A program made the position numbers and the translations under genes. From NCBI RefSeq assembly GCF_003334335.1, contig NZ_QOWQ01000177.1: a DNA stretch of 517 nucleotides; one strand, 5' to 3'. Positions 1 to 517 of this stretch are shown piece after piece (the stretch's first letter is position 1; each line of letters starts with the position of its first letter). The notes under the pieces were generated by a model. The model searched no databases and was not told the origin of the DNA. It was given only the letters and a program-made list of their open reading frames with translations. This DNA is from Escherichia coli (GTDB lineage: Bacteria > Pseudomonadota > Gammaproteobacteria > Enterobacterales > Enterobacteriaceae).

Positions 1-93
1 ATGCTGGTTGGCTCCCGCCGTATATCCCAGGACATCAGTACCCGTGATGAAGGCGGGGGCGGAAAGGTCGTGGTTATCGGGCGGCAGGGGTAA
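1..93 (+). CDS. I: Tail (tip) assembly protein I, C-terminal end; 5'-truncated by the window edge
   Basis: Frame +1 from position 1 reads MLVGSRRISQDISTRDEGGGGKVVVIGRQG followed by TAA at 91-93. This closely resembles the C-terminus of phage lambda gpI as I recall it (...GSRVVSQEISTADEGDGGQVVVIGR). Its position directly upstream of J matches lambdoid tail-gene order. The ATG at 1-3 is most likely an internal Met codon, not the start. GC content is about 63% by hand count, typical of the coding flanks. Confidence 0.8.
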   Translation: MLVGSRRISQDISTRDEGGGGKVVVIGRQG

Positions 94-139
94 AAAGAAT
101 AAAAAAATCCCGCAGTGATCGCGGACAGGAACTGCGGGA
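94..139 (-). terminator. Predicted intrinsic (rho-independent) terminator for a leftward transcript
   Basis: Perfect 9-bp inverted repeat: TCCCGCAGT at 108-116 pairs with ACTGCGGGA at 131-139, with a 14-nt loop (117-130). On the minus strand the stem is followed immediately by UUUUUUUAUUCUUUUU (complement of the A-run at 92-107). On the + strand no U-tract follows the stem (GAGAGTTACG), so it is oriented for the minus strand. The loop is larger than in typical terminators, which lowers confidence. Confidence 0.5.
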
Positions 140-198
140 GAGTTACGAAGATTAAGTGTAAGGAATTATTCTTATGTCACGACAAAAAAAATTAACGC
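100..198 (-). ncRNA. Candidate small non-coding RNA of about 100 nt (promoter-to-terminator unit without an ORF)
   Basis: The interval between the predicted start (about 198) and the end of the terminator U-tract (about 100) has no ATG-initiated ORF on the minus strand; the only coding-like string is GTG ACA TAA. The predicted transcript is 5'-GCGUUAAUUUUUUUUGUCGUGACAUAAGAAUAAUUCCUUACACUUAAUCUUCGUAACUC-[hairpin]-UUUUUUUAUUCUUUU. It has a U-rich 5' region and a terminator hairpin with U-tail, the usual layout of Hfq-type small RNAs. The boundaries are predictions. Confidence 0.3.
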
Positions 199-204
199 AG
201 CGAA

Positions 205-232
205 ATTATACGCGCCACAGTCAGTTTGTGAA
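205..232 (-). promoter_or_regulatory. Predicted sigma70 promoter on the minus strand (leftward)
   Basis: Read on the minus strand: -35 TTCACA (complement of 227-232, 5/6 match to TTGACA), a 16-bp spacer, then -10 TATAAT (complement of 205-210, 6/6). The predicted start is a G about 7 nt downstream, near + coordinate 198. It lies in the AT-rich spacer and fires away from J toward the terminator at 94-139. Confidence 0.4.
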
Positions 233-256
233 AATGTGAAGATATTCAGAATTTTT
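231..256. promoter_or_regulatory. CRP-like palindromic site (TGTGA-N6-TCAGA) with AT-rich flanks
   Basis: AAAATGTGAagatatTCAGAATTTTT compared with the CRP consensus AAATGTGAtctagaTCACATTT: the core at 235-250 matches 9 of 10 half-site positions, and the AAA/TTT flanks are present. The centre (about 242.5) lies roughly 44 bp upstream of the predicted minus-strand start, overlapping or just upstream of the -35. A second TGTGA at 227-231 gives a tandem TGTGAAAATGTGAA. Confidence 0.3.
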
Positions 257-272
257 ATTCAGTCATGATACA

Positions 273-300
273 GGCATCCTCCGGGGTGCCTGTTGTTTTT
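273..300 (+). terminator. Terminator-like GC hairpin with U-rich tail on the + strand, 36 nt upstream of the J start
   Basis: GGCATCC at 273-279 pairs with GGGTGCC at 284-290, giving 7 bp including one G-U pair, with a 4-nt loop TCCG. It is followed by TGTTGTTTTT at 291-300. An AU-rich stretch (AAUUUUUAUU, 250-259) precedes the hairpin. The A-run would precede the stem on the minus strand, so the orientation is +. It could be an attenuator or stability element of the late transcript, or the 3' end of a + strand small RNA. Confidence 0.35.
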
Positions 301-335: not shown

Positions 336-517
336 ATGGGCAAAGGCGGCGGCAGGGCGCACACACCGCGCGAGGCGAAGGATAATCTCAAATCCACGCA
401 GATGATGAGTGTGATTGATGCGATTGGTGAGGGACCGATAGAAGGTCCGGTGAAGGGACTGCAGAGTATCCTGGTGAACAAAACCCCGCTGACGGACACG
501 GACGGTAATCCCGTGAT
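336..517 (+). CDS. J: Host specificity protein J / central tail fibre (tip attachment protein J), N-terminal 60 codons; 3'-truncated by the window edge
   Basis: ATG at 336-338 opens a frame that stays open to the window end: MGKGGGRAHTPREAKDNLKSTQMMSVIDAIGEGPIEGPVKGLQSILVNKTPLTDTDGNPV. It matches the lambda gpJ N-terminus as I recall it (MGKGSSKGHTPREAKDNLKSTQLLSVIDAISEGPIEGPVDGLKSVLLNSTPVLDTEGN) at most positions. A strong Shine-Dalgarno sequence lies 5 nt upstream. GC content is about 62% by hand count. Confidence 0.9.
   Translation, partial: MGKGGGRAHTPREAKDNLKSTQMMSVIDAIGEGPIEGPVKGLQSILVNKTPLTDTDGNPV

Follow-up and report, generated by a model that had tools for sequence, protein, structure and literature searches.

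A predicted PasB/EcOnc22-24-family small RNA gene in the spacer between tail genes I and J of an Escherichia coli lambdoid prophage

PasB (pathogenicity-associated sRNA B) is an 83-nt small RNA encoded in prophage PP6 of EPEC E2348/69, on the minus strand at 1466343..1466261 (Table S6, PMC8550237). It was verified by Northern blot with the probe AATCCCGCAGTGATCGCGGAGCT (Table S6, Pearl Mizrahi et al. 2021, PMC8550237). PasB is strongly reduced in the hfq mutant of E2348/69: in the DESeq2 table of wild type versus hfq mutant, the log2 fold changes of pasB are -6.8 and -2.4 in two growth conditions. The RIL-seq data contain 37 interactions of PasB with partners elsewhere in the genome. PasB is nearly always the second RNA in the chimeras, as sRNAs are, and its U-tract is 7. 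The flanking genes, E2348C_1436 and E2348C_1437, correspond to I and J of the tail operon. The base means in the E2348/69 lysogen are about 5 for I and about 15 for J, while those of pasB are 482-1082. The high level of pasB next to nearly silent I and J genes supports expression independent of the late genes. Overnight static cultures in LB contain more PasB than exponential cultures in DMEM. The literature yielded no functional follow-up of PasB.

The other described RNAs at this position are EcOnc22, EcOnc23, and EcOnc24 of the O157:H7 (EHEC) strain Sakai. They are encoded in the prophages Sp15, Sp14, and Sp11, respectively, and are approximately 85 nt in length (Tree et al. 2014, PMC4104026, supplementary tables). 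All three are listed as "destabilised" in the EHEC hfq mutant (PMC4104026), and their targets are listed as "unknown" in a 2021 review. The common Northern probe for EcOnc22/23/24, GGGAGAGAACGATGAAGATTAAC..., corresponds to the I-J spacer of Sp15 in the orientation of the tail genes. The published coordinates of EcOnc22 refer to an older Sakai record, with an inferred offset of approximately 128-135 nt to NC_002695.2; the link between EcOnc22 and the I-J spacer is thus based on the probe sequence, not on the coordinates. The three EcOnc22-24 entries examined are all on the strand opposite to the tail genes. PasB (L012, E2348/69) and EcOnc22-24 (L133, Sakai NC_002695.2 2902300-3200) are one sRNA family, which was found twice. 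This link is absent from the searchable text of the PasB papers: Table S6 contains no note of it, and the term "EcOnc" is not seen in the preprint on Pas sRNAs (doi 10.64898/2026.05.13.724894).

The stretch of DNA analyzed here (hereafter, the window; 517 nt) is the junction of two lambdoid tail genes. The 3' end of the tail assembly gene I is at 1..93 on the plus strand (ORF 1..93, with the stop codon TAA at 91-93), and the tail tip host-specificity gene J starts with the ATG at 337 (MGKGGGRAHTPREAKDNLKST...; 337..517, plus strand). The names of both genes are taken from the annotation of phage PhiR5_1, which is 99.6% identical across the window; its "tail tip assembly protein I" ends at the same place. 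A 243-nt non-coding spacer separates I from J. Inside this spacer, on the minus strand and thus opposite to the tail genes, there is a unit consisting of a promoter and a terminator. A sequence-only reading proposed this unit as a small RNA gene antisense to the late tail operon. The description holds for one part of the polycistronic late transcript, its I-J spacer; of the coding sequences, the RNA overlaps no more than the final two bases of the stop codon of I, which are within the U-run.

The sigma-70 promoter is located at 232..205 on the minus strand. It is composed, as the sequence-only reading had stated, of the -35 element TTCACA (232..227), a 16-nt spacer, and the -10 element TATAAT (210..205), and it matches 11 of the 12 consensus positions. 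The predicted start is near G198. When the window was shuffled 3,000 times with the dinucleotide composition preserved, a promoter match of at least 11/12 anywhere on either strand was obtained in 0.8% of the shuffles. Of 139 family instances, about 115 have TATAAT or AATAAT as the -10 element, and about 18 have TATCAT. Promoters of the family differ in strength, with a poor -35 element in other allele types and a poor -10 element (GTGCAT) in one type. The promoter in the window is equal to or better than those of two allele types that are experimentally expressed.

Directly upstream of the -35 element, a candidate CRP-type box, TGTGA-AGATAT-TCAGA, is present at 235..250 (plus strand), centered approximately 44.5 nt upstream of the predicted start. 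One match was found against 0.01 expected. Two spacer bases vary among 12 homologues obtained by BLAST, whereas the half-sites are the same in all 12 and across allele types. A sample of 63 junctions drawn through the J protein contains the box in every case, at a constant distance of 24 nt from the -10 element. In a canonical class II CRP site this distance is usually 21 nt, and the identification with such a site was rejected. The center of the box is placed near -44.5 by this distance, not at the canonical -41.5. DMEM contains glucose, and the higher level of PasB in LB fits catabolite control without being specific to it.

The terminator is an intrinsic hairpin at 139..108 (minus strand) with a 9-bp stem and a 14-nt loop, in which UCCCGCAGU (139..131) is paired with ACUGCGGGA (116..108). 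Eight of the nine base pairs form the CCCGCAGU/ACUGCGGG core. The automatic terminator scan gave only a shorter inner alternative at 125..109. The hairpin is followed by the U-run UUUUUUUAUUCUUUUU (107..92, read from the sequence). The annotated 3' end of PasB in E2348/69 is after the seventh U, and the first seven U of the window (107..101) are likely to be the 3' end and the tail for the proximal face of Hfq. The GC hairpin and U-run between 139 and 92, about 60 nt downstream of the promoter, thus exist as proposed at the outset. A stem followed by a U-tract is stated in the preprint as a common feature of Pas sRNAs; here, it is represented by the 9-bp stem at 139..108 and the U7 at 107..101. 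As for the plus strand, the A-run after the I stop codon (94-108) is TAAAAAGAATAAAAAAA in the window and TAAAAAATAAAAAAA in PhiR5_1. This difference in length alters the distal part of the sRNA U-run and leaves the first seven U untouched.

The predicted primary transcript of approximately 98 nt corresponds to 198..101 on the minus strand. No minus-strand ORF of at least 20 aa is present between the promoter and the terminator, consistent with the initial view that nothing there is translatable. In the centroid fold by RNAfold, the terminator hairpin is the sole structure, and the body of the sRNA is predicted to be single-stranded and A/U-rich. The 5' arm of the terminator reads CCCGCAG in each of 18 diverse alleles, whose loops vary. 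The only helix common to these 18 alleles in RNAalifold is the invariant 7-bp terminator stem. Because the stem does not vary among alleles, covariation neither supports nor opposes it.

Several motifs are conserved in the body. The first transcribed bases, GCGUUA, are followed by a 5'-proximal tract of eight U (184..191, minus strand). In PasB, the annotated 5' end falls where the equivalent tract ends, about 15 nt downstream of where the shared TATAAT would place the start. This mismatch could be caused by RNA processing, by an imprecise coverage-based end, or by a misjudged start. The form of the window RNA equivalent to the annotated PasB is 184..101, which is 84 nt in length. Further downstream, the tract AAG-AAU-AAU (173..165) is followed by UUCC (165..162); together, they occupy 162..173 of the minus strand as a putative motif for the distal face of Hfq and an anti-Shine-Dalgarno-like element. 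In Tree et al. 2014 (PMC4104026), A-R-N repeats are given as the Hfq-binding motif. Although the alleles have diverged in sequence, 44 of the 46 distinct ones keep at least three consecutive ARN triplets in an equivalent position; among shuffles, such a run occurs in 3.8%.

The best conserved single-stranded segment is UUAAUCUUC, located just upstream of the terminator at 147..155 (minus strand) and kept in all allele types. Among the 46 distinct alleles, 34 contain UAAUCUUC, and 44 contain either AAUCUU or GAUCUU. Based on this conservation, UUAAUCUUC (155..147) is likely to be the pairing seed. The seed proposed for PasB in the 2026 preprint (doi 10.64898/2026.05.13.724894) lies in the region of the same segment.

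The relationship to PasB was recognized through the published Northern probe. Of the 23 nt of the PasB probe, the first 20 are identical to the window, and the probe corresponds to the plus strand of the terminator hairpin. The two RNAs share the I-J slot, the strand, and the TTCACA-16-TATAAT promoter at the same spacing. They also share the CCCGCAG/CUGCGGG terminator with U7, a few nucleotides from the I stop codon, as well as the UU(A/G)AUCUUC segment, the ARN tract, the first six transcribed bases GCGUUA, and the U-tract. In contrast, the global identity over the 83-nt RNA is 72.5%, and the longest shared word is 24 nt. The difference is seen in the 5' two-thirds (GUCGUGACAUAAGAAUAAUUCCUUACAC in the window and GCCCGAGUAACAAAAACAACUCCUUCACA in PasB) and in the terminator loop, which is 5 nt longer in the window. 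The published survey of Pas sRNAs in bacteria used BLAST with a word size of 28 and reported PasB variants differing by "a few nucleotides" (Zhu, Shabalina and Storz 2026, doi 10.64898/2026.05.13.724894). As 28 exceeds the longest shared word, a survey with PasB as the query cannot seed on the allele type of the window. EcOnc22-24 are similar to the window RNA in the I-J slot, the strand, and the scaffold, but they have AATAAT as the -10 element, a poor -35 element, a shorter body, and a different 5' half.

A covariance model, R1, was built from 11 sequences of the allele types B, C, D, and E (the PasB type, the Stx2a-phage type, the Sakai EcOnc22 type, and one further type), with the window type and its near relatives left out. 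Searched with the filters off, R1 matches 198..101 on the minus strand of the window over the full length of the model (1-96 of 96) with 61 bits and an E value of 1.7e-11. The span of the match is exactly the unit from the predicted start to the terminator. The unit also lies in the I-J spacer on the strand opposite to the tail genes, as in E2348/69 and Sakai Sp15. Judged from its sequence, the window RNA is a diverged, unnamed allele of the PasB/EcOnc22-24 family. The unit is real, a new but ordinary member of an already described family. The suggestion in the sequence-only reading that the RNA may be undescribed is therefore not sustained, as the family is known as PasB in EPEC and as EcOnc22-24 in EHEC at the same position. 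The other part of that reading, an autonomous, lysogen-active, phage-encoded small RNA of the Hfq type, is supported by these experimentally characterized homologues.

Other known sRNAs were also compared. AgvB and AsxR, mentioned as comparators in the sequence-only reading, are similarly prophage-encoded, Hfq-bound, short, and expressed in lysogens. However, they belong to a different family (EcOnc01-03; RF02702 and RF02703) with a conserved 3' module of about 42 nt, variable 5' ends, and a length of 51-60 nt. They occur downstream of Q, at the PR' moron site, and not in the tail operon. The window does not resemble them in sequence and is matched by neither of their Rfam models at E values up to 10. 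The search against Rfam 15 at E values up to 10 yielded only sub-threshold noise, with no AgvB, AsxR, or Esr41; Rfam contains no model for the PasB/EcOnc22-24 family. The best match, to MicX (RF01808), was rejected, as it has 21 bits and an E value of 0.02 against a gathering threshold of 75, and its alignment rests on two hairpins and the U-run. PasA/PasC and PasD were rejected by location, near the Q, lysis, and esterase genes.

A pattern search of viral contigs revealed 139 instances of the family, corresponding to 52 distinct sequences of at least five or six types, among which the window type is the most frequent. The cassette is present in all 63 scorable I-J junctions of a sample drawn through the J protein. 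The prevalence of four allele types was examined by megablast with at least 80% coverage in 5,426 complete E. coli genomes. The window type is the most widespread of the four, found at 1,749 places in 1,254 genomes, including ST131, O157:H7, O103, and O45 strains, among others. In NCTC9112, the match at 3342162-3342276 is 100% identical. The canonical PasB is found at 999 places in 956 genomes, the Sakai EcOnc22 type at 1,246 places in 542 genomes, and the Stx2a-phage type at 1,551 places in 464 genomes, with up to eight per genome. Shiga-toxin strains contain up to eight copies per genome. No annotated feature is seen under the matches of the window type or the other alleles among the RefSeq and phage matches listed. 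In the prophage contigs L017 (minus strand, approximately 6230-6780), L051, L058, L059, and L071, diverged PasB-like cassettes are arranged in tandem between I and J. There are two cassettes per slot, each with its own promoter and terminator, and L017 appears to contain a third.

Taken as a whole, 198..101 on the minus strand is very probably the gene for an Hfq-dependent, trans-pairing sRNA of the PasB/EcOnc22-24 family, autonomous in lysogens. This reading is based on homologues: the experimental properties come from alleles at most 72.5% identical to the window. The gene can be regarded as an autonomous insert in antisense orientation (a moron) in the lambdoid I-J spacer. In a lysogen, the host sigma-70 RNA polymerase would start around G198 from the promoter at 232..205. 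Transcription would stop at the intrinsic terminator (139..108 with U7), giving an RNA of approximately 98 nt, which may be trimmed to approximately 84 nt. The unstructured RNA would be bound by Hfq at two places, the 3' hairpin with its U-tail and the ARN tract AAG-AAU-AAU. UUCC and UUAAUCUUC, both conserved and single-stranded, would then pair with mRNAs in trans. By analogy with its homologues, the window allele would produce a transcript, depend on Hfq, have partners in trans, and be expressed with the tail genes silent. The expected Hfq contacts and seed have their sequence correlates in U7, the hairpin, and the (ARN)3 tract. As the 5' two-thirds are different from those of PasB, the window allele probably has an overlapping but different set of targets.

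The spacer contains one more structure. On the plus strand, between the sRNA promoter and J, a terminator-like hairpin of 10 bp (270-293) with the tail TGTTTTTG occupies 270..300, and its fold has a z-score of -4.1. It is more conserved than the body of the sRNA, with one stem pair varying among C-G, U.G, and U-A. In spacer variants of 342 nt (for example, L009), it is replaced by an unrelated hairpin, ACCCCGGTATC...GATACCGGGGT. The possibility that 270-300 is the end of a second sRNA was rejected, as no plus-strand promoter was found by the scan or by manual inspection. The supplementary tables for E2348/69 contain no plus-strand RNA in the I-J spacer. The 35-45 nt immediately upstream of J (301-336 of the window, plus strand, compared with L004-L008) are seen in two unrelated versions: GTGAGTGAACAATTATCACGGTAAGAGGTGATGTA followed by an ATG start, and GGGCATAAACAGATTCAGACATCAGACAGGAGAGGGGGACAGA followed by a GTG start. 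The two versions are combined freely with different sRNA allele types (for example, in L003), indicating recombination breakpoints at conserved blocks.

The position of the gene raises the alternative that the sRNA acts mainly in cis. By pairing with the I-J late mRNA or by colliding with late transcription, it would tune the expression of J or the processing of the mRNA at induction. The unit is wholly within the late operon on the opposite strand, fully complementary to the mRNA of the I-J spacer; its position at the I-J junction is fixed in every copy examined, and the conserved terminator-like hairpin is placed just before J. However, the complementarity ends approximately 140 nt upstream of the ribosome-binding site of J, and a direct block of translation is therefore not expected. 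PasB has 37 Hfq-mediated partners elsewhere in the genome, and its target in cis is essentially absent in lysogens. The ARN and seed-like motifs are kept in diverged alleles, although a pure antisense RNA would not need them. An action mainly in cis is thus considered unlikely, and it would be compatible with a role in trans.

It is highly improbable that the promoter and terminator are due to chance or are vestigial, with the spacer serving a structural role as a bidirectional terminator or insulator and no functional RNA produced from the window allele. The terminator on the plus strand of the same spacer would fit such a role. Against this, the chance of the 11/12 promoter is approximately 0.008, and the promoter, ARN tract, seed-like motif, and terminator are kept in alleles that are diverged elsewhere. 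Besides, two other allele types are experimentally expressed.

A type I toxin-antitoxin system with the sRNA as the antitoxin RNA, or a plus-strand small protein (MKINVKELF..., which PhiR12_5 annotates as a hypothetical protein of 32 aa), is scarcely credible: in about half of the distinct alleles, a plus-strand ORF that begins with an ATG and has 15 to more than 31 codons overlaps the sRNA, but this ATG is missing in 26 of the 52 distinct alleles, most of which, including the window, have ACG there; changes in homopolymer length shift the frame, generating ends such as KKH*, KNTNAAKL*, and KKLTQRNY...; the peptides have no hydrophobic helix; the commonest allele, v1, has no ATG for the second ORF in the window (174-239); and the scan gave no plus-strand promoter. 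The short plus-strand ORFs at 115-195 and 174-239 overlap the sRNA gene and are not conserved across alleles. As neither the start codon nor the frame is conserved, the 32-aa protein of PhiR12_5 (L005 660-758) is probably an annotation artefact.

With the trans-pairing sRNA as the preferred reading, a tentative model can be considered for the family. The I-J spacer could possibly be a dedicated "sRNA slot", where a fixed scaffold holds interchangeable bodies that are swapped by recombination, sometimes two or three in tandem. The scaffold in this speculation would consist of the CRP-type box, the promoter, GCGUUA with the U-tract, the ARN tract, UUAAUCUUC, the CCCGCAG terminator, and the plus-strand terminator before J. 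PasB and EcOnc22-24 would then be two alleles of one large family, and the window allele would be the most widespread, with its own set of targets and possibly under catabolite control.

Two points are new here. Of the four allele types tested, the one found in the most genomes has neither a name nor an annotation, and the family, which unites PasB with EcOnc22-24, extends beyond the published PasB survey. The practical value lies in annotation and classification. If the alleles differ in their targets, E. coli strains would differ in an Hfq-bound regulator that is missing from the current catalogues.
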